A stretch of 64,000 nt of DNA from Candidatus Uhrbacteria bacterium (lineage in GTDB: Bacteria; Patescibacteriota; Patescibacteriia; UBA9934): NCBI GenBank assembly GCA_018673485.1, contig JABHCP010000007.1:9890-73889 (forward strand), read 5' to 3'. Below, in pieces: positions 3,274-42,063 of this stretch. The notes beneath the pieces were generated by a model that was given only the letters and a program-made list of their open reading frames with translations, was not told where the DNA came from and searched no databases. Each line of letters begins with the position of its first letter. Position 1 is the first letter of the stretch. A program made the translations under genes and the position numbers.

Positions 3274-5100
3274 CTATTCCCACCAAGCCTCTAATTCAAT
3301 GTCTGTGTAGAAATACTTCAAAATCTCGTCCCACATGTAATCATCATTTGCCATGTGTAAGGCACCGAGTGCTGACATTCCGATTCCGTGGCCCCAAAGT
3401 ATGCCACCTTCTTCCCATGGGACTTCTACTGACTGGCACCAAGCCTTTGTGCCGTTCCACACTTCATCCCAAGACCGAGTTCGTCCGTCTGAGCGTGAGA
3501 AATACGGTGTAATCGCAAGCTCTCCATTATAGGTCACGATCGTACCCCGAGTATCAACAACCGCTTGCACGATTGTTGGCGAATCCTTCTCGTGCTCGTA
3601 TCCACGATACACCTGATCATCAGCATAAGCATTTACATGCATGAATTCTCCTCTTTCAGAAACCTCATAACGCGAATTTGCATAAGCATATGTCCTTGCT
3701 GCAGTCACTAAAGCTTTTTGATATTCAGCAGGTGACACGTCTGAAGTCTCAGCGAGCCCGTACAAATACTGCTCGATTGGTAATTCATTTATCACCCAAG
3801 TTCTTTCTTTATAGTCGTTATATCTTAACTCTAAAATATTTCGATATGTATTGTTTGCAAATCCTGCATTTCGAGTCTCGCGATAATCAAAGTTAACTAT
3901 CGTCATTACCGCGTTTTCCTCCTCTGGCACCCATCGAAGACCGTATGAAGAAACCTCCTGCCCACGCCCAAGATCAAAATAATATTTACCATCATCATAA
4001 TAACCTGTGACCAACTCTCCAGAGTCCAACTCTGCAAGCAAATTCCCTTGCGTGTCTTCAAGCCGGAAATCTGATTCATACGAAGTAATCACGGTTTCGT
4101 AATCTGTTTCTTCGTCTATGGTTAAAAGACCAACTCTGATAATTGGCTCTTCGTCCAATTGGTAATCGATCATTGCATCATCATCTTCATTATCAACTGT
4201 AGCCTCAGCGCCGCCTGTCACTTCAAATGGCAACTCAATGATTGCATCCTCAATCTGCTCTCCATTGGCTGAAAATTGGAATTCAGCTGTGTGAAAACCA
4301 TTTGTGACTGGTGACATTAAAGCGAAACTTATATAAGCAACTTCGCCGGGTGCCACTGGCTCACTAGCATAAGCAAGTTGAGATCCTGACCACGATGGGT
4401 GTTCAAAACTTACAGCTGACGATGCGTAAGCTACATCCATTTCATTTACTGAATACGATGTCCAGCTCTCTGTCCCAATATTTGTAAATCCAGCGGTCAT
4501 TAATATTGAAACTCCTGCTTTTGCCTTAATTGATTTGGCGCTCAAGATGGTCAACTCTGCCTCAAGCCCACTATCAGCTTCGTTAAGCTCTGTGATTGTT
4601 ATCATCTCCTGCACTTCGCTTGTAACATTAATTGAAAAACTAATCTCTCCTCCATCAACCCACGCAATATCCTCTGACGCTAAATGGAACACCTCCACAT
4701 AATCACCTTCAGTGCTTGGCGCGTGCAATTCGAACATCATACTTGCTGTTTCTCCAGGCACGACCACAGGTTCGATAATTCGTTTAACTTGATCCGGCCC
4801 AAGCCATGTTCCAGGATCAAATGAACTTGATCGATACTTTGGCTCATAAGTATAAAGGGAGATATATCCAGCGCCATCGTTATACCAAGTTAAGTCTCCG
4901 TTATTTAGAAATGTCACGCTAACCTCTTTTACTTCCCCTGGAGACATTGTCAGCTCGCCACTTCCAGAGATTGTGACAGGTACCGCCTCGTAAGATGCGG
5001 CCTGAACTGCAGTTGAGATAAAAAAGAACCCGCAAAGCATTAATGCGGTTAAAATTCCCCACTTTTGTAATACATTCATAGCGTTTTGCATTGGTTTCAT
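3274..5100 (-). CDS. secreted SpoIID/LytB-domain protein with long N-terminal beta-rich region
   Basis: signal peptide; C-terminal SpoIID-like motifs EQYLYGLAE, ALVTAARTYA, TPYFSRSDGRT. Confidence 0.65.
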   Translation of the reverse strand: MKPMQNAMNVLQKWGILTALMLCGFFFISTAVQAASYEAVPVTISGSGELTMSPGEVKEVSVTFLNNGDLTWYNDGAGYISLYTYEPKYRSSSFDPGTWLGPDQVKRIIEPVVVPGETASMMFELHAPSTEGDYVEVFHLASEDIAWVDGGEISFSINVTSEVQEMITITELNEADSGLEAELTILSAKSIKAKAGVSILMTAGFTNIGTESWTSYSVNEMDVAYASSAVSFEHPSWSGSQLAYASEPVAPGEVAYISFALMSPVTNGFHTAEFQFSANGEQIEDAIIELPFEVTGGAEATVDNEDDDAMIDYQLDEEPIIRVGLLTIDEETDYETVITSYESDFRLEDTQGNLLAELDSGELVTGYYDDGKYYFDLGRGQEVSSYGLRWVPEEENAVMTIVNFDYRETRNAGFANNTYRNILELRYNDYKERTWVINELPIEQYLYGLAETSDVSPAEYQKALVTAARTYAYANSRYEVSERGEFMHVNAYADDQVYRGYEHEKDSPTIVQAVVDTRGTIVTYNGELAITPYFSRSDGRTRSWDEVWNGTKAWCQSVEVPWEEGGILWGHGIGMSALGALHMANDDYMWDEILKYFYTDIELEAWWE

Positions 5101-5634
5101 GCAGATTGATTATAGCGCACTCTCGGCGTTGGATAAAATATGTTTTCAACAGGATATTAACAAAACAAGAACCCCCACAACAGCGTAGAGATTCGAGTGT
5201 CAGACCAGTGGCCTGATACACCTCTACGGTGCGGGGGTAGATTGGACGTTGTGGGGCCTAAGGCTCACCCACACCCGTCCGCTATGACACTGGCATGCAT
5301 TCCTCGCTCTATCCCGTTTGACGATTGGGATAGCCAAGGGCGAACATGTTCTCCAGCATCTACAGTGACCGCTTCAAAACCACCTCATGACGACCAGTAA
5401 CGTAGGGCCGCCATGGTGACTAGTGATCATCCACGGTCGTGAAAGGTGTGAAACATTGGATAAGTGAACTAGCCACCAATCCGAGGGCTAAGAAGGCTGT
5501 GTCTGGGGAGCCAAGAACCCAGGAGGAGCGCCCACACAAAGGCTCAACCACAGACACAGATACGTTAGCTTGCTACGAGTCTAGATCATTCCAATCAAGG
5601 AGGCCGTGGCCGTACTTGATCTAGGTCTCGCTTG

Positions 5635-5679
5635 CAAGCAACTGAGAAATGACAGAATCAGCTCTCAGTTAACTGCAAT
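5635..5679 (+). repeat. 45-nt direct repeat copy 1 with internal hairpin AACTGAGA-N15-TCTCAGTT
   Basis: 40/45 identity with 6067..6111. Confidence 0.7.
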
Positions 5680-6066
5680 GTTGAAAGTTATGGCCTGCCG
5701 GGAGCAAGTTTTGAACCAGGGAGCACCCAGTGCCCCCGGTCAGACCAAGAAGTTTTGTGGTGAGACACCAGAGGCGGTGACCACTCTGTGCAAGGAGTAG
5801 CCATCCGCTCTGGTGTCACTTTCGTATAGGTGGGTTGCGATCCACACCTAAACTCAGCTGCAATTACCGCGTCATGCACTCAGCCTCTTGGGGCAAGTGG
5901 TCATCCTTTTCCAGGATAATAGGGGCGTGCACTGATCTCTCCCCATAATGACGAAGTTCGTTCCGACATCTTAGCGCTTGGAGCGCTTTGATGTCCGCTG
6001 TATAGGCCACCACAGGCCTAGGAACTAAGTGAAGTTTGCTCGCAGGACCACTCAGGATCCTACTTA

Positions 6067-6111
6067 CAAGCAACTGAGAAGTGACAGTATCAACTCTCAG
6101 TTGCCTGCAAT
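6067..6111 (+). repeat. 45-nt direct repeat copy 2
   Basis: 40/45 identity with 5635..5679; the same hairpin is retained. Confidence 0.7.
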
Positions 6112-7262
6112 CTTAAACTCCGATTGCTAGCAACGCGCCTATAACAAGCGAGTAACTAATATAAATAATTGTTTCCATATATACACCTCCTAGATTATCA
6201 ATTTCTTAATCTCCTAGCAGGGGTCCCAGGGTTCGACAGATGTCTATTACCTGGGAGTGATGTTGATGCGGCGGACACTTCCGTCCTTGCACCTAGTCAC
6301 TACGACCTTCGGCTTTGCGGCATGATCCGACGCCCTCGCCTGCTGCCGAAGCTTGGCAGGGGAGGTCGTGAACCACACACGCTGGCCCCGAAGAGGCCCG
6401 CACTGACTGGTATCCATAGTATCTCCATGTCAGGGTTGAACAGATTGTATTTCAGGGAACTGGGTCTCTCCTTTCCCAGTTCCCTGGAATAAATCCAGGG
6501 ATCTCTCAGTCTTTTCACAGACAGGTTGATGATTATATTCATAACCCTCCAGATGAACCGTCTCTGTCTCTATATAGCTGCCGAGGCAGCGGTGGTTATC
6601 AGCCGTTCACAACAGGGGTCGAGGTTTTGACGAATCCTCCAGACTCTCATCTGAACGCGCATGGGGGAATACGTCCAGGTGAGAATCAAGTGGATATTGA
6701 AATTGGATCGGGAGAGGAGCTACTGAGAGTGGCTCCTCCCCCGAAACACGATCGTACCTTGGTGAACCTCCGTTTGGACTATGGGGCTCACCAATGACCT
6801 ATCATACCCTCACCAGTACCTATCGCATGCGTTAGCACGCGATACCTAAATGGCTGGCGACAGGTGATATCGGTCTAATGACACTTCAAACTCGATACGT
6901 TAGGACGCAACCGCTGTGTCCAGCAGCAATCTGAATCGAGCTCAAATGGGACATGTCACCTTCCGCAAAACTGCGGTTCCCAGGAATATGGTGTGGTAAA
7001 TCACCTCTCCCTTGTCATCCCTCTGACAAGCTAAAGGAATGGCAAGGATGGTGATTTTTGTTGTTAAGTGCTCACTTGAGGAATCTGCCTCATCAGCGAA
7101 CAAGGAAATCTATCATATCTATCAGAATCTGTCAAGCCCTTGATGTACAAAAAAGGTCATATTTGGGCATAATTGGCTAAAATTAAACAAAAAAAGAACC
7201 AATTTTCATCGGTTCTCCCTGTATAGTTTCAGCTTTATACTTTCAACTTTCTATCCTCCCCC

Positions 7263-7291
7263 TTGACAACCAACCACTTTTCATGTATAGT
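7263..7291 (+). promoter_or_regulatory. sigma70-type promoter (TTGACA-17-TATAGT)
   Basis: perfect -35 hexamer, 17-nt spacer, TATAGT -10; points into 7298..7576. Confidence 0.5.
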
Positions 7292-7535
7292 ACTGGGTCG
7301 TGCTGCAGATCTGCGGCGCGCTACACTAGCGGCCCTGAGCCGCTACATCTCGGAGTCATCATGAACGCGTAACCCCGTTGCGCTGTGAGGACCCAACCCC
7401 ATCCAGCCTGGAAGGTTCACAAGTCAACTGGCCCAACGGCCAGATATCATCGCGAACGCACGCCCCGTGCGTCGTGAATAGGAAGACTTCTGCAACCAAT
7501 CAGGAGGTGTGATGTGGGAGGAGTTTAACCACAGC

Positions 7536-7576
7536 GCGGGCCGTCGACTAACCATCGGCGGCCTTCCTATTTTTTA
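7536..7576. terminator. putative bidirectional intrinsic terminator
   Basis: GGCCGTCGAC...GGCGGCC hairpin followed by TTTTTT on the plus strand; lies immediately 3' of the minus-strand TrmB gene. Confidence 0.4.
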
Positions 7577-8322
7577 AATATCAATTTTGGCTTTTTCCCA
7601 GACCTCCACATTGTCTCAAATAAAGCTCTCATGGAATTAGCAAACATCTCACTCTCCATAACGATAACTGTCATGGTGCCAATGTATGAAATAAAGAAAA
7701 TATATTTATCAAAAATTGTTATATTCCCTCTGAACTCTAAATCTTCCGGCAGTGTTCTATACTGATAACCCTTTCGTGGATTCCTAGCAGTACCCTGCAA
7801 TAAAATTCTAGCATTCTTTGGTGTGTGCTTGTATGCGCTTCTCGCGGAGAGCAAAACACCTTCATCTAGATAATCATAAACATCATCAACGTTGGAAATC
7901 TCATCAAACTCTCTTGGCTTTATTTTTTCTATATAATCAAAGTATGCAGTTAGTGCTTCCTTGCCCTCATACACCTTCACAATTGGCTTTGCACCTCCGC
8001 CTAACAACTTAAGTGCATCGATTGATCGAGTAACGTCCTCGATTTTTGTTTTGAACTTTTGCTGTTCTTCTTTTAGATACGAAACTATGCGCTCAGGATC
8101 CTCTGCAGCGTACAGCTGCTTCTTTCCAACAATGGAGCTGCTCATTAGGCCACGTTCTGAAAGCTGACTAATGGCGTCATAAGCGGCAGTTCGTGAGATG
8201 CCAGATTTTTGTGCAATAGCTTGCACTGGTGATGGTCCAAGCTCGAGTGCTGCTAAATAGACTTTTGATTCGCTAGGCATTAAACCAATGGACTCCAAAA
8301 GTGGTGTTAATTTTTTTCCCAT
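7567..8322 (-). CDS. TrmB-family transcriptional regulator
   Basis: N-terminal HTH KVYLAALELGPSPVQAIAQKSGISRTAAYDAISQL typical of TrmB; 251 aa. Confidence 0.75.
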   Translation of the reverse strand: MGKKLTPLLESIGLMPSESKVYLAALELGPSPVQAIAQKSGISRTAAYDAISQLSERGLMSSSIVGKKQLYAAEDPERIVSYLKEEQQKFKTKIEDVTRSIDALKLLGGGAKPIVKVYEGKEALTAYFDYIEKIKPREFDEISNVDDVYDYLDEGVLLSARSAYKHTPKNARILLQGTARNPRKGYQYRTLPEDLEFRGNITIFDKYIFFISYIGTMTVIVMESEMFANSMRALFETMWRSGKKPKLIFKK

Positions 8323-8360
8323 AATATTTTATTTATGTACATATTTTATCACATTTTCGA

Positions 8361-8404
8361 AAAACTCGACTGTATACTGCCTACTGCATACTGTATACTG
8401 TTAC
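8361..8404. repeat. TACTGNN heptad-like tandem repeat
   Basis: TATACTGCCTACTGCATACTGTATACTGTTACTGC between divergent TrmB and flippase genes; related runs at 29590, 46818, 49020. Confidence 0.4.
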
Positions 8405-8408
8405 TGCT

Positions 8409-9848
8409 ATGAACAAAACAAAGGCGCTTGCGCAAAACGCAGCTATACAAATCATTGGTAAAACTGCTGCAACATTATTAGGTGTATTTACAGTTGCGAT
8501 TCTAGCCCGTCACTTGGGCGTTGAAGGCTATGGTCAGTTCACCATCGCGCTTTCGTTTCTTTCTATATTTGCAGTGATTGTCGACTTTGGACTCACGCTC
8601 ACCACAACGCAGATGATCTCAGAAAAAGAAGCAGATGAAGCGACACTGCTTGGAAATCTATTAACACTGCGGATTATCTCAGCAGTAGTGTTCCTGGCCT
8701 TGGCTCCTGTTGTGGCATTGGTATTTCCGTATGATAATGTAATCCAATTAGCAATCGCCATTGGTGCATTCTCATATCTTTTTGGAACTACAGCGCAGAT
8801 GTTTGTTGGCGTGTTCCAAAAACGAATGCTTATGTCGCGTGTCGTAATAGCTGAGCTTGCAAACCGCACCGCTGTACTAATCGGGGTGTTATTCGCACCT
8901 TACTTTGGCTTTGGTGTAGTCGACATTGTTTGGTTGCTCGTAATCGGTAACGCAATTCAATTACTGCTCATGCTTTGGCAGACAAAAGTTCTCGTTGCCT
9001 TCAAACCGAAGCTCAACACCGCAATCTGGAAAAAGATAATCTTACGCAGCTGGCCAATTGGGGCATCCATTTTCTTTAATTTGATCTACCTCAGAGGTGA
9101 TATTGTATTTCTATCAATCTTCCGCGACAATGCCGAGACCGGACTTTACGGAGCGGCATACAAAGTTGTTGATGTGGTTGCTGCAATCCCAGTTATGTAC
9201 ATGGGAATCGCCCTTCCTCTTCTTGTTGCCGCATGGAGCGCGTCGCGAACCAATAGATTCAAAAACTACATGCAAAAGTCTTTCGACTTTTTATCAATTG
9301 CAGCAACGCCAATGATTTTTGGAACAATCGCGCTTGGTGTGCCAATAATGCAACTGGTCGCCGGCATGGAATTCACTGAATCTGGAAGAGTTTTGATGAT
9401 ACTTGGTCCAGCAGCGGCAATCGTATTTTGGAATTCACTTTTTGGACACGCCATCGTTGCACTCAACAAACAAAAAGTCATGACCTGGGGTTATTTAGCA
9501 GTCGCCATCCTGACAGTTGCTGGATACATCTACTTTATACCAATCCACGGCATGTGGGCTGCTGCCTGGCTAACACTTTTCTCTGAAGCTCTCATCGGAA
9601 CGCTGACTTTTGTAGTTGTATGGCGCGTGAGCAAATACTTCCCGTCGCTTAAGATGCTGTCCAAGGCAATTCTTGCGAGCGTTGTAATGTTCATCGTTTT
9701 GGTAATTCTCCCGAATGTACACGTCTTGCTACTAATTCCTCTCGCGATGATCATCTACGTGGCAGCGCTAACCGCGCTTGGTGGACCAAAGCCACAAGAA
9801 GTGTTAAACCTATTCCTACCGGAAAAACCACCTATTAGTCAGCCTTAA
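8409..9848 (+). CDS. polysaccharide biosynthesis protein / Wzx-like oligosaccharide flippase (MOP superfamily)
   Basis: 479 aa, about 12-14 TM segments, N-terminus typical of the PST family. Confidence 0.8.
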   Translation: MNKTKALAQNAAIQIIGKTAATLLGVFTVAILARHLGVEGYGQFTIALSFLSIFAVIVDFGLTLTTTQMISEKEADEATLLGNLLTLRIISAVVFLALAPVVALVFPYDNVIQLAIAIGAFSYLFGTTAQMFVGVFQKRMLMSRVVIAELANRTAVLIGVLFAPYFGFGVVDIVWLLVIGNAIQLLLMLWQTKVLVAFKPKLNTAIWKKIILRSWPIGASIFFNLIYLRGDIVFLSIFRDNAETGLYGAAYKVVDVVAAIPVMYMGIALPLLVAAWSASRTNRFKNYMQKSFDFLSIAATPMIFGTIALGVPIMQLVAGMEFTESGRVLMILGPAAAIVFWNSLFGHAIVALNKQKVMTWGYLAVAILTVAGYIYFIPIHGMWAAAWLTLFSEALIGTLTFVVVWRVSKYFPSLKMLSKAILASVVMFIVLVILPNVHVLLLIPLAMIIYVAALTALGGPKPQEVLNLFLPEKPPISQP

Positions 9849-11345: not shown

Positions 11346-12146
11346 ATGCGTCCACTCTTGGGCCCCAACAACGGAGAGCACATGACAATTCGCCCCCTCC
11401 CCTGCGCTGATGACAACGTGAAAGCATTGGTATCACCCTTCAAACTGAGTGAGGTGGTAGTCACCTCGCCTGATGATCGCCGGCGAGCCGTTGAGTACAT
11501 GGCCTTCTGGTTTGGCCAGGACGAGCACATGAACCAGTTCTTTGGAGCCCTATGCAAACATGGAACTCCGGAACAGCAAGCGTCTGCACGTCGCGCCATC
11601 TTTGACATCTTCCTCGACGACGCACTCAAGTGCGCCTACCTGCGTAGCTTGGACGGTGAACGCACCGCATGCGAAAGCTGGTGGACGTACATGTACCCAA
11701 AAACGATCCGCGAAGACCTTGAAGAAACTGCTCAGCAAGTAGCTCGTGGATTCGAAGCTATCGGCTGGGCCAAACTCTTCTACGGTTTCCAGGTACTGAT
11801 GGCTGTCAAAAACCACGCTGTACCCAAAATTGATGGAGCGATGATCCCGCACCTTCAACTCAGCAATATCGCAACCGTTGAGGACCTCCGTGGAAGAAAG
11901 CACGCGACAGCTCACATCGTAGCGGTCTGCCGCGTCGCTGATGACCTCAACCTGCCAATTGCGCTGTGCTATGCGCGCCCCGACAATGCCACGTTTTACG
12001 CGAAGTTTGGATTCGAGGACAAGGAACGCATTCCAAAGCTGCCTGACAAATGCCCGTTCTACAACTGGATGTTGCGCATACCAGAGTCGGGACCAGGTGG
12101 TCACACAATGCACATCTGGCGAGCACGCAGACTCCTGCAAGCCTAG
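11346..12146 (+). CDS. hypothetical protein, possibly GNAT-fold, in a high-GC cassette
   Basis: 266 aa; C-terminal NATFYAKFGFED resembles the GNAT motif; about 57% GC; flanked by a promoter-hairpin and a terminator repeat. Confidence 0.45.
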   Translation: MRPLLGPNNGEHMTIRPLPCADDNVKALVSPFKLSEVVVTSPDDRRRAVEYMAFWFGQDEHMNQFFGALCKHGTPEQQASARRAIFDIFLDDALKCAYLRSLDGERTACESWWTYMYPKTIREDLEETAQQVARGFEAIGWAKLFYGFQVLMAVKNHAVPKIDGAMIPHLQLSNIATVEDLRGRKHATAHIVAVCRVADDLNLPIALCYARPDNATFYAKFGFEDKERIPKLPDKCPFYNWMLRIPESGPGGHTMHIWRARRLLQA

Positions 12147-12336
12147 CGACAACAGTGCAGCCCCTTAACCCGCCAAACTCGGCGGGTTTCACGCTTGCAA
12201 TATTAGTTAGTTGCGCCTAAATCCTCTACTTTTTTCACAAAACTCCCCTAGAGACAGTAGCCTTGACAAAAGGCTGTTTTTTATATAATCTTTCGAGTGG
12301 ATTTAACTTCAAGCCACGATACCCCCGAGGTGAAAC

Positions 12337-12738
12337 ATGAGTCGCAGCTTCGCAGAAGTCCGCCAAGCGGCACCACCGATCCACGCCTTTGTGCCGGCGC
12401 ACAAAACCTTAGTGGATAAAATGATGGGCACCGTGACTGGCGACAAAGTCACGATCCTCGAGCCCAACACCATCGACGAACAGTATAGCGACACGCCTTT
12501 CGGTAGTGATGCTGCTACGAGCTATGTCGCGGGTGACGGCAATCGCAAAACCCCATACACCCTCAAAAGTGCGGCGCCAATGTCTGCACACTACGGTATG
12601 GTTGGCCTATGGTGGCTCTTCCAACTCAGCCTGCGCTCATGCAAGCGTCCGGTGTACATCAAGGTCAACGATTGGATCTTCGAGATCACTCCCGAAGGCG
12701 TCATCGCCCTCGACGGTACACTCACGAAGCTCATCTGA
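12337..12738 (+). CDS. hypothetical protein in a high-GC cassette
   Basis: 133 aa; preceded by the same AGCCTTGACAAAAGGCTGTTTT element and followed by the same GCGGGTTTCAC-CTTGCAA-ATTAGTTA terminator repeat as the previous ORF. Confidence 0.45.
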   Translation: MSRSFAEVRQAAPPIHAFVPAHKTLVDKMMGTVTGDKVTILEPNTIDEQYSDTPFGSDAATSYVAGDGNRKTPYTLKSAAPMSAHYGMVGLWWLFQLSLRSCKRPVYIKVNDWIFEITPEGVIALDGTLTKLI

Positions 12739-16200: not shown

Positions 16201-16221
16201 TGACGCTACATAAAATTCAAT

Positions 16222-16255
16222 AAAAAAACTTCCGGTTAAGCTGGAAGTTTTTTTA
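16222..16255. terminator. bidirectional intrinsic terminator
   Basis: A7-ACTTCCGG-N-CTGGAAGT-T7 between convergent genes. Confidence 0.7.
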
Positions 16256-16272
16256 TTGATCACCAATCTTTT

Positions 16273-16548
16273 CTACTCAATTCGTATTGCCTTACCTTCA
16301 ACTAAAGCCCCTGCGACCTTTGATAGTCCAGAGGAGATTATCCTCTGCAAGGTGCTTTGTGAAGTCTGCATTTTTTGTGCTGCTTGCGTTTGAGAAAGTC
16401 CTTCATATTGAGTTAGGCGAATTGCCTCAAACTCCTCATCATCGAGCGTGATCACCTCCAATTGTCGCATGGGCACACCCTGAGGTTTAAAATATGTAAC
16501 CTCAGGGGAAAACCTGATACGCCTAGACATTCGTGGTCGTGGTGACAT
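16273..16548 (-). CDS. DUF134 (UPF0251) predicted DNA-binding protein
   Basis: 91 aa with a sigma-70 region-4-like HTH LTQYEGLSQTQAAQKMQTSQSTLQRII. Confidence 0.7.
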   Translation of the reverse strand: MSPRPRMSRRIRFSPEVTYFKPQGVPMRQLEVITLDDEEFEAIRLTQYEGLSQTQAAQKMQTSQSTLQRIISSGLSKVAGALVEGKAIRIE

Positions 16549-16550
16549 AC

Positions 16551-16736
16551 TTATTCTTGATCTTGCCGGTTTCTTCCTCTTCCGAAAAATCTACCGAGCA
16601 TACCGCGTCCACCACGGCGCATTGCGCGACCTCTTCCTTGGCGTGGGCAGGGCAACTCACTTTTGTCACAGGGCCCTAAGGCCTGCCCAGTTTTTGGACC
16701 TTGGCCATCTGGACCGGTCCCATCTCTATTTGGCAT
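16551..16736 (-). CDS. DUF5320-like small Gly/Arg-rich protein
   Basis: MPNRDGTGPDGQGPKTGQALGPC N-terminus resembles DUF5320, which commonly pairs with DUF134. Confidence 0.5.
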   Translation of the reverse strand: MPNRDGTGPDGQGPKTGQALGPCDKSELPCPRQGRGRAMRRGGRGMLGRFFGRGRNRQDQE

Positions 16737-16840
16737 AGAATTTATGGTTAATACTTATCTATTTTGAATATATACCCATATCTATATTCTGTCAACTGTT
16801 GAAACGTTTAAAATGTTCAATCGTAAAGGCGTTGCCCTCA

Positions 16841-16949: not shown

Positions 16950-17618
16950 CTATTCTTCCCCGAAGTCACGACTCCAGTGCCAGTCGAGATATTTGTCACC
17001 TGTCCGGAACTGGATCCACTTGTTGGAAATCGAGAACATCACCTTGTGCTCTGTGGTATGTATACGACCTGGAACACCAAGCGCTGCGTAACGCCCATTG
17101 GCATTCGTAGGCTTGAGCTGCTCGGCAGTGTAGTGCCACTCGGCGTGTCCACGAGCATCGACTCGTGTATCTGGGAACACGAGGTGACAGCGCTCACCAG
17201 GGTTGAGCACATAACTCTCCTGACCGCTATCCATGACAACACGGTCAGTACCCTGGTGCGCCACGACTGTAGTCTGGCCATCAGGCATCTGCGCGAGCAT
17301 CGGCATGGCTTTCCACACACTGACCGGGAAACCATCGATACTGAAGCGGATCGGCGCAGGGGTGTCGTTCGTGAACGTCGCCTCGAACCATCCTTGGGCT
17401 GCGTTGGGTGGCAATCCACCGATGTAACACTTGCCTGGGACGACCTCACGAGCATCGATCATAGGCGAATACGGACTCGAATGGGTTTGCGTTGCAACGG
17501 TCTGCCGTTGTACGTCCTGTCGTTGCGTCTGCTGCTGCACCGGGGGTGGAGCATGGCGAGAGTGAGGACCCGCAAAGGTAGTAGCGGCCAACAAGACAAT
17601 GCACGTGAGATGACTCAT
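16950..17618 (-). CDS. secreted hypothetical protein in a high-GC island
   Basis: signal peptide MSHLTCIVLLAATTFAGP; about 60% GC; opposite-strand ORFs are Arg-rich antisense artefacts. Confidence 0.5.
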   Translation of the reverse strand: MSHLTCIVLLAATTFAGPHSRHAPPPVQQQTQRQDVQRQTVATQTHSSPYSPMIDAREVVPGKCYIGGLPPNAAQGWFEATFTNDTPAPIRFSIDGFPVSVWKAMPMLAQMPDGQTTVVAHQGTDRVVMDSGQESYVLNPGERCHLVFPDTRVDARGHAEWHYTAEQLKPTNANGRYAALGVPGRIHTTEHKVMFSISNKWIQFRTGDKYLDWHWSRDFGEE

Positions 17619-17621
17619 GAT

Positions 17622-18272
17622 CTACTCCCCCTCGAGGATGTCTGTGAGGACTTCCTCGGCTGAGTCAGCACGCGCCTGCTGGGCGTCGGCCTCCTTTTGG
17701 GCCTTCTCGCGTTGCAGCTTCAGTGCCTCGATTTGGCTTGCTTGCCGTTGCGTCGTCGCTTCGAGCTCTGCGGCCTCAGCCTCGGCTGCGGCCTGGAGTT
17801 GTTGCGCACCCTGGACCTCAGTACTACGACCATCGGCCCACATCTGAGTAGAGATAATCGACGCTTCGCTGTCGATGATCTGCAAATCGCGTGTGAGCAT
17901 CGGCGGAAGATAGGCACCATACGGATCGTGATACTGATCGTACAGACTGTAGTACTGATCGTACGGATCGCTATACATGTCAGGAGGCGGCGGCACATAG
18001 GTCGGGCCAACCTGAAGGTGGAGACCTCCGCGCACGCGCGGGGTGGAACCACGGTTGTACGCTCGGCGGCGGCTCGGCTCGATCTGCACGTGCAACTGAG
18101 CGGACTGTCCGCTGCACTGGTACCAGCCGTCGCTGTTGCGATAGTCAGGCACCTGGATGGTGCGCATGTCCACGCAATTGCCGTTGCGGTAATCGTAGCA
18201 GACCTGCTTGCAGGAATCTGCGTAGGCGGGGTTCAGGCTCATGGTGAGAACGAGGGCGATCAGGAAGTTCAT
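17622..18272 (-). CDS. secreted hypothetical protein with C-terminal coiled coil in a high-GC island
   Basis: start taken at MNFLIALVLTMSLNPAYA (signal peptide); Cys-rich N-terminal part; Q/A/E-rich coiled coil. Confidence 0.5.
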   Translation of the reverse strand: MNFLIALVLTMSLNPAYADSCKQVCYDYRNGNCVDMRTIQVPDYRNSDGWYQCSGQSAQLHVQIEPSRRRAYNRGSTPRVRGGLHLQVGPTYVPPPPDMYSDPYDQYYSLYDQYHDPYGAYLPPMLTRDLQIIDSEASIISTQMWADGRSTEVQGAQQLQAAAEAEAAELEATTQRQASQIEALKLQREKAQKEADAQQARADSAEEVLTDILEGE

Positions 18273-18542
18273 GACTTCTCCGGGGGTGATAGGACGGGAA
18301 AATTCACTACAAAAGCGCTTATGCTGGCGCTCTGCAGACATGTTAAATTATCATGAAAAACTCATTCGGTCAATACAAAGCCATGCCTCATTGAACTAAT
18401 CAGTCACGACTACCCCAAACCTAGCCTAGTATTCCTGATTGACAATTATGCGAACTTTTGCTAAATTAAACCGTCTTGATCTACTCGTCTTTGGGACGAA
18501 TCAAGTATCCGTCCCCTCAAAAACCACACACAGGAGTGACCC

Positions 18543-20165
18543 ATGTCACCACCGATCACAAAAGCAGAAGTTCTAGCAACGTTTGGCGATGTTGGCTTTG
18601 CCACGATCCGTGAGCAACTGCAAAGCGCAATCGGCAACAGCGATGTCTCCCTCCTCTTGAACCAAACCGGCCTTCGCGCAAAGCTAGCCAAAGCGGCCAT
18701 GGAGCATCCGCAAGGTGCTGCTGTTGGCATTGATGTTTTGACAACTCTTGTTGGCAGAATGGCCAGCCACTACAACCCCTTGCTTGGAAAGACAGTTGAT
18801 GAGCTGGGTGAAGGTGTAGCCTACGGGCTCCGTGATCTAGCTCAAGAAGCTCGAAATGGCACAGCTATCACCGCTGGCAACGTCGAAACTGCCCTGCAAC
18901 AGGCTGACAAAACCATGGCGGTCATCAAAGAACAGCGCAGCGCAAAACTCGCTGAACTCCATGTTGGGCAGCGTCGCGCATTCTTTGCCCTTCTGCTCGC
19001 CAGCCGAGAAGAAGAGCACTTTGACAATACGCCCGCTTGGGCGCTTGACCCGCTTGCAGCACGCCGAAGGCGCCATGGCCAACGTGGATTCCGCGGACTC
19101 GAAGGTCGCGCGTTTCAGACTGAGGCTGGACTGCTCTGGTTGCTCGAAACCGACATCGAAATGCTCAAGCAAGTCCTGCCAAGCGACAAGAGCTTTGACC
19201 AGGTGTACTACTACCCTTCGCGCTGCTGCCAAGAGGCAATCACCGCGGCTACGACCTGCAAGTCTATGCCAATGCAAAAGGCGCTTGACGTCATCGACCT
19301 GATGGTCGACAAAGAAGACCTCAAGCAAAGAGCTGGCAGAACTGCTGGTTGGATCCTAGACACTGCGCGCAGTGCGGCAACCACTGCTCTGATCGCTTAT
19401 CCAGTGTTCATGATCGTCATGTTCGCGCTCTTCTTTACCGCAGCAATCATCTTCTTGGTATGCCACGCAACGCTCCTATTTGCCCCCACTGCGCCGACCT
19501 GGGCTGTTGTAACGATAATCCTGGCCTACCTTGCCTTGCTGCTCTTCCGCTACACATTTACGTTGGTGGACACATTCCATGCCTTTGTTGGCTGGCTTGT
19601 GCAACGGCTTGATGTGACGCGTGAAGATGCGCTCGTAGGCACGATCGCACGTGGCCTCTTGGGCATCTTTGGTAAAGAAGACTTGCTCAAACAGACTCCG
19701 CGTGGAGAAAAGAGGGAATACTCATGGGCAGTCCACTTTGCTGGAACGGCGTTCATCGCCGCAACAGCACTTGCCGCCCTGACCGTACTCCACTACTTTA
19801 TGGGACGAGGTATTGGCCCAGCGTTCATCATCATCCTCACAGAGCTCCTCATCCTCCTAGCAGTTGAGCTCCCACGACGAATGTCAGCCCTGATCCCGCA
19901 TAGCGACAAGATCCAGGACGCCCGTTGGATGCGGAAATGGGTGACGCGTGGTGCTGTAACACTCATCGTTCTGACGGCCATCATCTCGATTGTGGGCTGG
20001 AACACTACCAGCTGGCTCGTGAGCCAAGTTCGCTCAGAACAGGTCACGAATCCAGCCGAAGCTGGTGCTCCAGAGCACAGCTCACCTAAGCTCGAGCGCG
20101 CCTGCGCGCACTGTCGCGAACACGATGGTTGCAGCGACGTGCTCAAGGCCAAGTGTGGTCTCTAG
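18543..20165 (+). CDS. hypothetical membrane protein (soluble N-terminal domain plus about 6 TM) in a high-GC island
   Basis: 540 aa; promoter-like TTGACA-17-TAAATT upstream at about 18435. Confidence 0.55.
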   Translation: MSPPITKAEVLATFGDVGFATIREQLQSAIGNSDVSLLLNQTGLRAKLAKAAMEHPQGAAVGIDVLTTLVGRMASHYNPLLGKTVDELGEGVAYGLRDLAQEARNGTAITAGNVETALQQADKTMAVIKEQRSAKLAELHVGQRRAFFALLLASREEEHFDNTPAWALDPLAARRRRHGQRGFRGLEGRAFQTEAGLLWLLETDIEMLKQVLPSDKSFDQVYYYPSRCCQEAITAATTCKSMPMQKALDVIDLMVDKEDLKQRAGRTAGWILDTARSAATTALIAYPVFMIVMFALFFTAAIIFLVCHATLLFAPTAPTWAVVTIILAYLALLLFRYTFTLVDTFHAFVGWLVQRLDVTREDALVGTIARGLLGIFGKEDLLKQTPRGEKREYSWAVHFAGTAFIAATALAALTVLHYFMGRGIGPAFIIILTELLILLAVELPRRMSALIPHSDKIQDARWMRKWVTRGAVTLIVLTAIISIVGWNTTSWLVSQVRSEQVTNPAEAGAPEHSSPKLERACAHCREHDGCSDVLKAKCGL

Positions 20166-25383: not shown

Positions 25384-25704
25384 CTTTTATCTCTCGCTTC
25401 AGTCCCCCGGCAATGTTCCGCCAGTTAGCCCCCGTTCATTCATTGTCAAATCACCCCGTCTGAGAGGGAGCCTGTTGTAAATACTGAGCCTGTCGAAGTG
25501 CCGACCGAACTGGCAATCAGTTCATTCATAGTCACCCAAAAACATTGACTGCAGGCCGCATCATTCTTTGTGGCCGTGGGACTCTCTGAAAAGGCTCTTT
25601 TCCGGCGGAGCCGGACCTGGCTCCGCCATGGCTTTGCTTACTTTCTTTGAGGCGAACAAAGAAAGTAAGTCGGGTGGTTTGGAGGGTGAAACGCCTCCAA
25701 TGTG
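25384..25704 (-). promoter_or_regulatory. structured about 320-nt leader between ferredoxin and oxidoreductase genes
   Basis: 13-bp perfect hairpin CTTACTTTCTTTG/CAAAGAAAGTAAG, GGCGGAGCC/GGCTCCGCC hairpin, repeated TGAATGAAC blocks. Confidence 0.35.
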
Positions 25705-25971
25705 TTAAACCTCAGGGTACAACTGCTTTCCATCCTCACCGGTAACAATCACAGCAAGTGTAGGACAACTCTGCGCCGCCATCAATACTCGATCTAATTC
25801 TTCTTGCGTAACTTCAACTTCGCGCTCGTACTTTGATTCATCAGCTGCTTTTCCATGATCGAGAACGTATGCTTTATTCTCATCATTCATCTCAAAACTT
25901 GAATCGTCAATCGCTACACAACTTGCAGCGCCAATACACAAATCTGGGTCTACTTTGATTGTAATTTTCAT
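25705..25971 (-). CDS. small ferredoxin
   Basis: CIGAASC...SCP cysteine pattern of single-cluster ferredoxins; 88 aa. Confidence 0.7.
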   Translation of the reverse strand: MKITIKVDPDLCIGAASCVAIDDSSFEMNDENKAYVLDHGKAADESKYEREVEVTQEELDRVLMAAQSCPTLAVIVTGEDGKQLYPEV

Positions 25972-25986
25972 AGTTTTATTTATCTA

Positions 25987-26027
25987 GCCCCTCCCCCTTT
26001 TTCCTCAAGGGGGAGCTGGAGGGGGTT
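25987..26027. repeat. GC-rich palindromic repeat (CTCCCCCTT-N-AAGGGGGAG-CTRGAGGGGGTT family)
   Basis: related copies at 43092..43152, 44206..44239, 46746..46777, 60269..60349. Confidence 0.6.
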
Positions 26028-26093
26028 TCTAATCTTTAAAATCAGACCTTATTGACCTCCCCTGACCCATCCTTTTGAAGGAGGGAATTTATA

Positions 26094-41462: not shown

Positions 41463-41689
41463 AAAGCAATGGGGGTAAGAACGGATCTTTACAAAATTCG
41501 TGACCTGTTGATTTATGAGTCCCATATACCAACACCTCATCGAATTTTAGAAAGATCAGATTTTATATCTCTCAGTCGACGCTGTGAATAATATATCAGA
41601 TATCCACAGGTAGCAAGTACCAATAAAATCGTATAAATGTGCAAAAGTTGTGGATATGGTGTGTGGAACTGTACCTTTATCCCCGATTC

Positions 41690-41718
41690 TTGACAAAATA
41701 CCGTATAGTTAGTATAGT
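41690..41718 (+). promoter_or_regulatory. sigma70-type promoter of rpmH (TTGACA-17-TATAGT)
   Basis: consensus hexamers about 57 nt upstream of the rpmH ATG; near-consensus DnaA boxes at 41600 and 41649. Confidence 0.5.
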
Positions 41719-41774
41719 TTCGACACTTTGACTAATATGTTGTTGATCAAATCAATGACAGTAATAACTAAGTT

Positions 41775-41927
41775 ATGCCGAAGAGGACATACCAACCAAA
41801 AAAGCGGCGCCGTGCTCGAAAACACGGATTTCGAAAGCGAATGCTCACGAAGACCGGACGCGCAGTACTAAAACGCCGACGAGCCAGAGGACGAAAGCGA
41901 CTTACAGTTGCAGCCCGAATGGCTTAA
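41775..41927 (+). CDS. rpmH: 50S ribosomal protein L34
   Basis: hand translation [50 protein letters not shown]; below the ORF-track length cutoff. Confidence 0.85.
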
Positions 41928-41963
41928 AAGAAAAGCGACTCAGCAATGAGCCGTTTTTTCTTT

Positions 41964-42021
41964 TAGTAGATCCCCTGCCTACCGGCAGGCAGGCTCGACT
42001 CCCTTCGGTCGCTCAGGATGA
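41964..42021 (+). repeat. modular GC-rich repeat containing the CCGG-centred palindromic module
   Basis: TAGTAGATCCCCTGCCTACCGGCAGGCAGG... shares the module with 9918..9944. Confidence 0.5.
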
Positions 42022-42063
42022 CAACATTGTATATTTACTGTTGTCACTTTATACTGACACCGT

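Follow-up and report, generated by a model that had tools for sequence, protein, structure and literature searches.

We analysed a 64,000-nt stretch (hereafter, the window) of a genome of Candidatus Uhrbacteria (Patescibacteria/CPR), in which positions 5101-7566 separate a SpoIID-domain gene, on the minus strand, from a minus-strand regulator gene of the TrmB family. No ORF longer than 107 aa overlaps this interval in any frame, the largest being at 6169-6492 (+), and GC content is raised (0.47-0.54 in 400-nt windows, about 0.50 per kb, vs. 0.39-0.45 in the flanks), although it is nearer 51% than the 55% given by the initial annotation. All other sequence-level statements of that annotation were checked, and its observation of a GC-rich, repeat- and hairpin-bearing region without ORFs of ordinary length is confirmed. 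Specifically, a 55-nt direct repeat at 85% identity occupies 5631-5685 and 6063-6117 (self-BLAST E-value 6.5e-12 in the window), each copy reading AACTGAGA-N15-TCTCAGTT, with a partial third copy of the 3' half at about 5841-5859; the GGAGGAGC/GCTCCTCC inverted repeat at 6708-6744 and the GCTGCC-GAG-GCAGC hairpin at 6579-6592 are present; and so are a minus-strand terminator at 7220-7191 and a TTGACA-17-TATAGT promoter at 7263-7291 (11 of 12 matches). Folding exceeds chance, with 200-nt MFE z-scores on the minus strand averaging about -3 over 5101-7100 (minimum -8.1) vs. about -0.3 in the coding flanks. However, the absence of ORFs holds only at the length threshold originally used, since two conserved small ORFs of 56 and 21 aa and two ORFs of 3-4 codons lie inside the interval.

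Five diverged relatives (loci and genomes used for comparison carry L numbers below) keep the block at 55-78% identity. A codon-phase test gave a max-phase fraction of 0.57-0.88 with no indels in the flanks, as opposed to 0.33-0.53 with indels across 7566-5100; that is, the block lacks the codon periodicity of its neighbors. Only two σ70 promoters are positionally conserved, and they point to two predicted units on opposite strands with a control region between them. The module is also dispensable: it is absent in L018, L113, L114 and L115-117. Exact-protein look-ups returned only 100%-identical copies of the window, which are uninformative for covariation, and a first scan of genome contigs with SpoIID peptides found nothing.

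The regulator gene, the predicted small RNA and the control region

The neighboring gene at 7567..8322 (-), which the initial annotation called trmB, encodes a 251-aa TrmB-family winged-HTH regulator and not the tRNA methyltransferase. Its N-terminus matches Pfam PF01978 (E 9.8e-13) as well as NCBIfam TrmBL1 and TrmB N-terminal models, and its AF2 model (pLDDT 86) has TrmBL2 5bpd (E 6e-13) and TrmB 3qph as best PDB matches. No sequence match was found beyond residue ~100, and the size and predicted fold agree with TrmBL2, which lacks the sugar-binding domain of TrmB proper, and with PLD/Nuc-like proteins. The gene is gained and lost together with the RNA block, both being absent in L018 and L115-117, and a ~2.1-kb conserved non-coding stretch also follows the regulator in the distant pair L092/L095. 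A search with a control-region HMM and tblastn with the regulator found no second copy.

The promoter at 7263..7291 (+), with both hexamers and the 17-nt spacing kept in all 5 close relatives, would drive a ~280-nt small RNA at 7298..7574 (+), its start being inferred from the -10 element, which is convergent with the regulator gene and antisense to its 3' region. Equivalent promoters pointing at the regulator's stop codon occur in 24 further loci. The plus strand folds better than the minus strand here (z -4.1 and -4.5 vs. -2.7 and -1.8), there is no codon periodicity, and Rfam gave no match. The predicted RNA ends at an intrinsic terminator at 7538..7574 (+) that abuts the regulator's stop codon. 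It carries two Shine-Dalgarno-led tiny ORFs: ATG AAC GCG TAA (MNA*) at 7361..7372 (+), with GGAG 6 nt upstream, and GTG GGA GGA GTT TAA (MGGV*) at 7514..7528 (+), with AGGAGG 6 nt upstream and ending 9 nt before the terminator stem. The former is kept in L013 with a synonymous change and a different stop codon, and in L016 with identical codons. Across 25 such small RNAs there are 46 ORFs of this type on the sense strand, compared to 4 on the antisense strand and 2.8±1.7 in shuffled sequences.

The minus-strand terminator at 7191..7220 (-), whose hairpin and T-run are conserved in the close clade and in L083, L079 and L075, most likely ends the regulator mRNA after a ~350-nt 3' UTR complementary to the small RNA, although this UTR reading is an inference. 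Between the two divergent promoters, at 7175..7188, lies a candidate operator, GGCTAAAATTAAAC here and a clean palindrome, GCTAAATTTAGC, in other clades, based on a control-region alignment across about 15 loci; it is also present in L118. The extended -10 promoter of the predicted long RNA (TTGACA-17-TG-a-TAGATT) at 7107..7135 (-) is positionally conserved and is found across distant Uhrbacteria clades.

The predicted long transcript and its small ORFs

The predicted long transcript occupies 5160..7101 (-), running from 7101 to ~5165 (~1.94 kb), and is about 88% non-coding. Its 5' end, GUUCGCUGAUG, is conserved across clades, the first strong terminator lies 1934 nt from that end, and no other positionally conserved promoter exists. 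The start, the 3' end and single-transcript status are inferred from motifs alone. It begins with a hairpin (GUUCGCU...AGUGAGC) at 7068..7101 (-), the stem of which is kept with G-U and compensatory variants in L068, L075, L093 and L101. The 5' CUGAUGAG looked hammerhead-like, but L013 has CUGGUGAG, there is no GAAA after stem II and there is no Rfam hit, and hence this identity was rejected. A ~370-nt structured insertion domain at 6688..7062 (-) is present only in the window and L013 and absent in L016, L068 and L071; in this two-sequence alignment, 18 of 75 predicted pairs are changed on both sides (covariation term -12.25), and the MFE z-score is -8.1. A near-invariant 257-nt core follows at 6439..6695 (-), the span of the covariance-model hit, with 105 of 147 columns invariant in 5 sequences and 92.9% of cells paired. 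A covariance model of the core, core-motif regular expressions and a full-length nhmmer search found no core homologue outside the five close relatives, which fits co-evolution with a partner but does not prove it.

The core forms the 5' leader of ORF-A at 6247..6417 (-), an unannotated 56-aa basic micro-protein with the signature W[FHY]TTSP...VVxRRxG. ORF-A is open in all 5 relatives with the same stop codon and one in-frame indel, its BLOSUM sum is 1602 in frame vs. 580 and 782 out of frame, and its dN/dS is 0.26-0.62 in frame vs. about 1 out of frame, although its codon-position bias is modest ([20,22,31]) and a canonical start codon is lacking at the aligned position in 3 of 5 relatives. 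Homologues occur in other Uhrbacteria clades (L100, L089, L105, L074 and L075), and one is P0224; L118 has the operator, promoter and ORF-A without an adjacent regulator gene. A 5-sequence ORF-A profile against 5.8 billion proteins gave nothing, the family, which gene callers almost never predict, has one cluster among 1.84 billion representatives, and single-sequence AF2 reached pLDDT 64, too low to use. Pfam, NCBIfam and PHROGs searches with the ORFs and a PDB profile search gave no significant hit; the C-terminal half of ORF-A weakly resembles the bL36 β-hairpin (E 0.66, not significant).

ORF-B at 6113..6178 (-) encodes a 21-aa hydrophobic peptide, METIIYISYSLVIGALLAIGV, kept in all 5 relatives with substitutions by codon position of [6,1,14] and [4,1,15], and found only in this clade. 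Its strong Shine-Dalgarno is sequestered in a predicted hairpin at 6186..6221 (-) (CCUGCUAGGAGAUUAA / UUGAUAAUCUAGGAGG; helix 11, 14 pairs, 98.6% paired, 2 compensatory pairs). Directly after its stop codon lies copy 1 of the hairpin repeat, at 6064..6110 (-); copy 2, at 5631..5685 (-), lies within the conserved block 5765-5615, and its helix is kept in L068 with a different sequence. A conserved 3' structured domain at 5230..5350 (-) has helices (2-4) that are 95-100% paired with 2-3 compensatory pairs each, and the unit ends with a long terminator hairpin plus U-tail at 5160..5228 (-) (terminator call at 5194-5169), the stem of which covaries between the window and L013.

Pairs changed on both sides exceeded the shuffled and slid controls in every module examined: 8 in the core (4.3±1.3 in shuffles, reached in 1 of 500; 0-3 in slid controls), 13 in the pre-ORF module (0 of 500), 10 in the 3' domain (14 of 500) and 18 in the insertion domain. 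It should be noted that only five sequences carry the core, which makes these statistics weak in the R-scape sense, and that some alignments were structure-naive (MAFFT). The strand assignment is supported by alifold energies of -80.0 and -63.2 for the sense vs. -72.6 and -46.1 for the antisense strand, and by G-U cells numbering 61 vs. 10 and 36 vs. 14. RNAduplex between the small and long RNAs gave only long unspecific duplexes with no conserved site, and GGAGG is not clearly enriched in the long RNA (5 observed vs. 2.2±1.4 expected), and thus the idea of a ribosome sponge was dropped for this RNA. Self-BLAST found no paralogue of the region elsewhere in the window, and a comparison of window positions 11346-12146 with L013 showed no homology.

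Interpretation and alternative readings

The interpretation of the initial annotation, a single giant ncRNA of the GOLLD/ROOL/OLE kind, is only partly supported. The block is conserved, overwhelmingly non-coding and folded, with its own conserved promoter and terminator motifs. However, the evidence points to two units rather than one 2.4-kb RNA, the textbook promoter at 7263 belongs to the small RNA and not the large one, and the long RNA carries two ORFs under purifying selection. We favor the hypothesis (with a probability of roughly 60%) that the block is an RNA locus of Uhrbacteria tied to a TrmBL2-like DNA-binding regulator, consisting of the long minus-strand RNA, the small plus-strand RNA and a palindromic operator between their divergent promoters. 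In this view, the long RNA is a dual-function RNA, or an mRNA with giant structured untranslated parts, and not a pure ncRNA. What the analysis establishes is the anatomy, conservation, covariation and coding signals; transcription, translation and all function are inferred. That is, the regulator may bind the operator and set transcription of both RNAs; the small RNA may pair with the overlapping 3' UTR of the regulator mRNA as feedback, modulated by ribosomes on its mini-ORFs; the near-invariant core may control translation of ORF-A, whose start codon is ATG, GTG, ATT or ATC/CTG, most likely through binding of the basic ORF-A protein itself (an autoregulatory RNP); and the covarying hairpin may keep ORF-B silent until the RNA is remodelled. 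Regulatory activity of the RNA separate from its peptides is likewise inferred, only from the indirect argument that conserved non-coding domains are larger and better conserved than the ORFs, and none of the observations assigns a role to the ~950-nt 3' part.

Alternatively, the long RNA could be a pure giant structured ncRNA of the OLE/GOLLD/ROOL type working as an RNA or RNP machine, with the small ORFs incidental and untranslated. The predominance of non-coding sequence, a core more conserved than ORF-A (46-50% amino-acid identity), covariation throughout, including inside ORF-A, and the long RNA without detectable ORF-A in the L092 clade agree with this reading, but we consider it unlikely given the in-frame dN/dS, conserved stop codon and in-frame indel of ORF-A, its recurrence in distant clades whose RNA sequence is otherwise unrelated, the third-position substitution pattern of ORF-B and the lack of any Rfam match. 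About as doubtful is that several independent short RNAs or mRNAs are packed side by side, for example the leader, ORF-A and ORF-B ending at the 6110-6064 hairpin and a separate 3' RNA: the region 6060-5750 is variable, L071 has a weak terminator-like site 1152 nt from the 5' end, and in L118 the unit ends about 150 nt after ORF-A. However, no conserved internal promoter exists on either strand between 7100 and 5165, the post-ORF hairpins lack a U-tail, the only strong minus-strand terminators are at 7220-7191 and 5194-5169, and the conserved, covarying 3' domain has no promoter of its own.

A type I toxin-antitoxin-like cassette, in which ORF-B would be a membrane toxin, its long, folded mRNA would keep the Shine-Dalgarno hidden and an antisense RNA would neutralise it, is also improbable. 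Its hydrophobicity, its occluded ribosome binding site, the patchiness of the module and the presence of an antisense-type small RNA would be consistent with such a cassette, but there is no positionally conserved plus-strand promoter between 5165 and 7100, the only small RNA overlaps the regulator's 3' end more than 1.1 kb away, the peptide is limited to one clade while the promoter, ORF-A and long-RNA unit is Uhrbacteria-wide, and the transcript would be 4-8 times longer than known type I toxin mRNAs. Finally, decayed coding DNA or a degraded horizontally acquired segment (the alternative raised by the initial annotation), or a cis-acting 5' leader of the SpoIID-domain gene, could be suggested by the raised GC, the patchy presence and the position directly upstream of SpoIID on the same strand, but these readings are contradicted by the data. 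The 8 longest ORFs gave no Pfam hit at E<=10, blastn against phage and plasmid collections gave no match, and two 16-mer scans of viral contigs gave only chance hits with no extended similarity, while blocks of the region are more conserved than the flanking genes and show compensatory changes. A strong terminator lies 65 nt before SpoIID, which keeps its own TATAAT promoter, also kept in L018, which lacks the block; in most clades the unit is not followed by SpoIID, and the downstream genes in other clades are unrelated to each other.

CPR genomes are tiny (under about 1 Mb) and densely coding, and keeping about 2.4 kb of mostly non-coding, tightly conserved and folded RNA thus implies an important function. 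The locus adds three unannotated element types to this poorly understood lineage: a 1.5-1.9-kb predicted structured RNA, the WxTTSP micro-protein family, and a small RNA with conserved 2-5-codon minigenes, a natural system for asking what such minimal ORFs do. It also shows that screens for ORF-free, GC-rich gaps must test for micro-ORFs before calling a giant ncRNA. A further hypothesis, on present evidence unlikely, is a previously unrecognised three-part regulatory module made of a TrmBL2-like chromatin or repressor protein, an antisense RNA whose two 2-5-codon minigenes read out ribosome or translation status, and a giant, fast-evolving structured RNA forming an RNP with its own encoded micro-protein, which in this clade would have grown to 1.9 kb and captured a membrane peptide. 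That would make it a new class of RNA-protein machine in ultra-small CPR cells.

Comparison with known RNAs and regulators

A covariance-model search against Rfam 15, which had been set beforehand as a check, found nothing at gathering score, and over 4900-7800 on both strands at E<=10 only chance microRNA and snoRNA matches (E 0.8-9), with no match to OLE (RF01071), GOLLD (RF01998), ROOL (RF03087), HEARO, raiA or group I or II introns; relatives also gave no match, and no reverse-transcriptase or homing-endonuclease ORF was found. Like OLE, GOLLD and ROOL (PMC12286853), the predicted RNA is very long for a bacterial non-ribosomal RNA, GC-enriched relative to the genome and modular, with near-invariant blocks alternating with variable inserts, covarying helices, its own promoter and terminator motifs and linkage to a specific protein gene. 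However, it is 2-3 times longer (these RNAs measure about 600-800 nt), contains two ORFs under purifying selection, is restricted to Uhrbacteria with sequence turnover between clades, and is linked to a TrmBL2-like protein, not OapA/B/C. Dual-function RNAs such as S. aureus RNAIII/hld, SgrS/SgrT and SR1/SR1P combine a structured RNA having its own promoter and terminator, which here are conserved motifs only, with a very small encoded peptide, the structured regions being much larger than the ORF as they are here, but are 200-520 nt with one ORF and act by base pairing, as opposed to 1.9 kb and two ORFs with no known target pairing here. Type I toxin mRNAs (hok/sok, tisB/istR-1 and ibs/sib) share an accessory locus and a small hydrophobic peptide with a Shine-Dalgarno sequestered by conserved structure, but here no antisense RNA gene was found at the peptide, the predicted transcript is far longer and the peptide is a clade-specific addition to an older unit. 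The arrangement of a long, conserved structured leader directly upstream of a small basic protein with an often near-cognate start codon (ATT, ATC, GTG) recalls autoregulatory leaders (ribosomal-protein leaders; infC with its AUU start codon), although ORF-A is not a recognisable ribosomal protein, its binding is only inferred, and the leader differs between clades.

The regulator shares with TrmBL2 and TrmB (5bpd, 3qph) an N-terminal wHTH, a long helix and a PLD/Nuc-like C-terminal domain in its predicted fold, but it is bacterial (CPR) rather than archaeal, about 16% identical, without a detected sugar-binding subdomain, and linked to RNA genes. Finally, the tiny ORFs of the small RNA resemble minigenes such as phage lambda bar, synthetic 3-8-codon minigenes (PMC2490762) and the axe-txe minigene (PMC8708949) in having a strong Shine-Dalgarno, a start codon, 1-4 sense codons and a stop on an otherwise non-coding RNA, and any peptidyl-tRNA drop-off, ribosome sequestration or effect on tRNA pools or termination would be by analogy only. 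They differ in that two are present per RNA, at fixed positions, on an RNA antisense to a regulator gene, and are conserved in 25 Uhrbacteria loci, with the second codon mostly Gly, Phe, Trp or Asn.

Sequence features, relatives and non-coding character of the interval

The observation made in the initial annotation holds, since the interval 5101-7566 has no ORF above 107 aa in any frame and has a raised GC content of 0.47-0.54, compared to 0.39-0.45 in the flanks, although this value is nearer 51% than the 55% that had been proposed. The direct repeat is also real, with copies at 5631-5685 and 6063-6117 that share 85% identity over 55 nt (self-BLAST E-value of 6.5e-12), and each copy folds as AACTGAGA-N15-TCTCAGTT. 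The GC helices that had been noted, the minus-strand terminator at 7220-7191 and the TTGACA-17-TATAGT promoter at 7263-7291 are all present. Further, folding energy exceeds what composition would give; that is, minus-strand z-scores average about -3 over 5101-7100, with a minimum of -8.1, whereas those of neighbouring genes average about -0.3. In contrast, the interpretation of the interval as a single giant non-coding RNA is only partly supported, for the reasons described below (two predicted units on opposite strands, and small ORFs within both).

The proteins encoded around the interval are a SpoIID plus NBR1-Ig protein at 3274-5100 (-), a TrmB-family HTH regulator at 7567-8322 (-), a polysaccharide flippase and a Wzy-type polymerase, and their homologues are named Candidatus Uhrbacteria / Patescibacteria. 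Identical copies of the locus occur in several metagenomes, with the ENA samples ERZ27245997, ERZ23491424 and ERZ27237607 carrying identical contigs. Diverged relatives keep a gene-free gap of 2.0-2.3 kb between the regulator and SpoIID, namely the loci L013/L073 (SpoIID 83% identical), L015-17 (81%), L068 (74%) and L071, and the pairwise identity of the gap is 55-78%. In the relative L090, whose regulator is 52% identical, the gap between the regulator and SpoIID (5792-9132) is about 3.4 kb and lacks the conserved promoter/GUUCG motif. Other relatives (L018, L113, L114 and L115-117) lack both the regulator and the gap, and therefore the regulator and the RNA block form one dispensable module. 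Two of the relatives that lack the module carry a diversity-generating-retroelement-like cassette (bAvd plus a weak RVT_1 match) a few kb beyond RuvB (L115, 11551-12987; L116, 8310-9746), which is not present in the equivalent region of the window.

When the window was compared to L073, both flanking genes concentrated substitutions in one codon phase (0.57-0.88) and had no indels, while across 7566-5100 the largest phase fraction was 0.33-0.53 and indels were frequent. The eight longest ORFs of the interval gave no Pfam hit at E<=10, and no phage or plasmid similarity was found. Decay of a known gene, which is related to the alternative offered in the initial annotation (a degraded, horizontally acquired segment), is not supported.

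Predicted transcription units and RNA structure

Only two σ70-like promoters are positionally conserved over the whole 2.5-kb alignment: a minus-strand extended -10 promoter at 7135-7107 and the plus-strand promoter at 7263-7291. On the minus strand, the only strong terminators are those at 7220-7191 and 5194-5169, the latter being the tip of a long hairpin (5228-5169) whose stem covaries between the window and L013. From the conserved 5' end GUUCGCUGAUG at 7101, the first strong terminator lies 1934 nt downstream, which gives a minus-strand unit of ~1.94 kb as inferred from sequence motifs alone. The plus-strand promoter, together with the terminator at 7538-7574, defines a separate predicted RNA of ~280 nt. 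The SpoIID gene keeps its own TATAAT promoter (5098-5114, minus strand) only 8 nt before its ATG and has no Shine-Dalgarno, and thus looks like a leaderless mRNA; this promoter is conserved in relatives, including L018, which lacks the block. The block is therefore not a SpoIID leader.

Compensatory changes were found in each of the four modules assessed. In the core (6695-6439), 92.9% of cells are paired and 8 pairs changed on both sides, compared to 4.3±1.3 in shuffles (1 of 500) and 0-3 in slid controls, and 105 of 147 columns are invariant in five sequences; the clade also has an invariant 22-mer, TTCAGATGAGNNTCTGGAGGAT. In the pre-ORF module (6440-6170), 13 pairs changed on both sides against 5.5±1.6 in shuffles (0 of 500), and in the 3' domain, where three helices are 95-100% paired, 10 pairs changed against 5.8 (14 of 500). 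The insertion domain (7062-6688) is shared only by the window and L013, and 18 of its 75 pairs changed on both sides in this alignment of two sequences only. It is important to note that, with only five core-bearing sequences in existence, this is good but not R-scape-grade evidence, and that some alignments may be imperfect in the variable regions. The second hairpin repeat keeps its helix in L068 with a different sequence. Consistent with structure on the minus strand, consensus energies are -80.0 and -63.2 for the sense strand against -72.6 and -46.1 for the antisense strand, and G-U pairs strongly favour the minus strand.

Small ORFs in the long and the small RNA

The predicted long RNA contains two small ORFs, and about 12% of it is coding. 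The shorter one, ORF-B (6178→6113), encodes METIIYISYSLVIGALLAIGV behind AGGAGG and is kept by all five relatives, with substitutions by codon position of [6,1,14] and [4,1,15]. Its Shine-Dalgarno is paired in a predicted 14-bp hairpin (6221-6186) that is 98.6% paired and has two compensatory pairs, with the anti-SD arm at 6221-6206. ORF-B is found only in this clade. The longer one, ORF-A (6417→6247, 56 aa, basic), is open in all five relatives, keeps the same stop codon and has one in-frame 3-nt indel. Its BLOSUM sum is 1602 in frame, against 580 and 782 out of frame, its dN/dS is 0.26-0.62 in frame, against about 1 out of frame, and a six-frame scan found no other segment with pN well below pS. 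GGAG lies 5-6 nt before the start position; the start codon is ATG, GTG, ATT or ATC/CTG depending on the relative. A profile of ORF-A found homologues on the RNA-sense strand downstream of the regulator in other clades (L100, L089, L105, L074 and L075), and one cluster, P0224, among 1.84 billion representative proteins; the shared signature is G...W[FHY]TTSP..L...[VI][VI]xRRxG. Searches of ORF-A against Pfam, PHROG and PDB gave no match, the best PDB hit being bL36 at a non-significant E of 0.66.

The small RNA (7298-7574), which is convergent with the regulator, folds better on the plus strand and carries GGAG-N6-ATG AAC GCG TAA (7361-7372) and AGGAGG-N6-GTG GGA GGA GTT TAA (7514-7528), with the second ORF ending 9 nt before the terminator stem. 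Twenty-four other Uhrbacteria loci from species-representative genomes, downstream of TrmB homologues (within L069-L107), have the same arrangement: a promoter located 270-500 nt beyond the regulator's stop codon and pointing at it, with usually two tiny ORFs. Across the resulting 25 loci, such Shine-Dalgarno-led ORFs of only 2-5 codons (e.g., MNA*/MGGV*, MGSM*/MGNC* and MF*/MW*) number 46 on the sense strand, 4 on the antisense strand and 2.8±1.7 in shuffles, and the second codon is Gly in 24, Phe in 8, Trp in 7 and Asn in 5. Natural conserved minigenes on an antisense RNA appear to be undescribed.

Control region, proposed mechanism and comparison with other RNAs

The regulator models with pLDDT 86, and its best structural matches are the archaeal chromatin protein TrmBL2 and TrmB, with a C-terminal domain that is predicted to be PLD/Nuc-like. 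The family is expanded in this lineage, with 102 homologues in the protein search, and one Uhrbacteria genome (L075) has a second TrmB-family paralogue (6225-6977, minus strand) about 4 kb from the first. The stretch between the two promoters is conserved far beyond the close clade and contains, in order, a terminator T-run, a palindrome GCTAAATTTAGC (GGCTAAAATTAAAC in the window, 7175-7188), about 25 nt of spacer, TTGACA-17-TGaTAGaTT, and the RNA 5' end GUUCGCUGAUG, which forms a 5' hairpin with covarying stems. In the distant pair L092/L095, about 2.1 kb after the regulator is conserved but shows no codon periodicity. In another locus, L118, the same candidate operator, promoter, ~330-nt leader, ORF-A and terminator occur without an adjacent regulator gene; directly after this terminator lies a 113-aa ORF (MTRYFGFAFSASMLP...; 5347-5688, plus strand) of unknown family, which may be a functional partner in genomes where the regulator is not adjacent. 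Therefore, the ancestral unit appears to be operator, promoter, structured leader and ORF-A, usually next to the regulator and its antisense small RNA, with the window's clade having enlarged the transcript to 1.5-1.9 kb and added ORF-B.

While the anatomy of the locus, its conservation, the covariation and the coding signals are shown by our analysis, the mechanism that we propose, including transcription, translation and binding, is inferred. Specifically, the TrmBL2-like protein would bind the palindrome and control both divergent promoters, and the regulator mRNA would run on to the terminator at 7220-7191, such that its 3' UTR would be fully complementary to the small RNA, allowing antisense feedback. 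Ribosomes on the second minigene would sit next to the terminator stem and could modulate read-through into the regulator's antisense strand. The near-invariant core would be the leader of ORF-A; it differs between clades while ORF-A persists, which suggests a co-evolving partner, most simply the basic ORF-A protein itself (an autoregulatory RNP). ORF-B translation would require the opening of the Shine-Dalgarno hairpin. This model does not extend to the ~950-nt 3' part of the transcript.

The long RNA resembles OLE, GOLLD and ROOL, the classes suggested in the initial annotation, in size, modularity and gene linkage, but it fails their covariance models. It also resembles dual-function RNAs and type I toxin mRNAs in carrying a micro-ORF that appears to be gated, but it lacks an antitoxin RNA, given that no further positionally conserved promoter was found in the alignment, and is several times longer. 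Full-text literature searches found no description of such RNAs in Patescibacteria or Uhrbacteria. We regard the long RNA as a candidate dual-function or large structured RNA, which comes with a previously unannotated micro-protein family and a minigene-bearing small RNA.

Further stretches of 520-710 nt in the window, at 16201-16798, 25384-26093 and 41541-42063, have no ORF of 100 aa or more, and Rfam found nothing in them at gathering score. A second GC-rich stretch (0.54-0.58) at 16950-20165 has long overlapping ORFs on both strands (222-540 aa), none with a Pfam hit, and could represent novel genes or another non-coding region. Finally, a GC-rich stretch (0.52-0.56) at 11346-12738 has two ORFs (266 aa and 133 aa) without Pfam hits and with antisense ORFs overlapping them; the corresponding gene in L013 (256 aa) is not homologous, and this is a variable slot between the Wzy polymerase and the Na/Ca exchanger.
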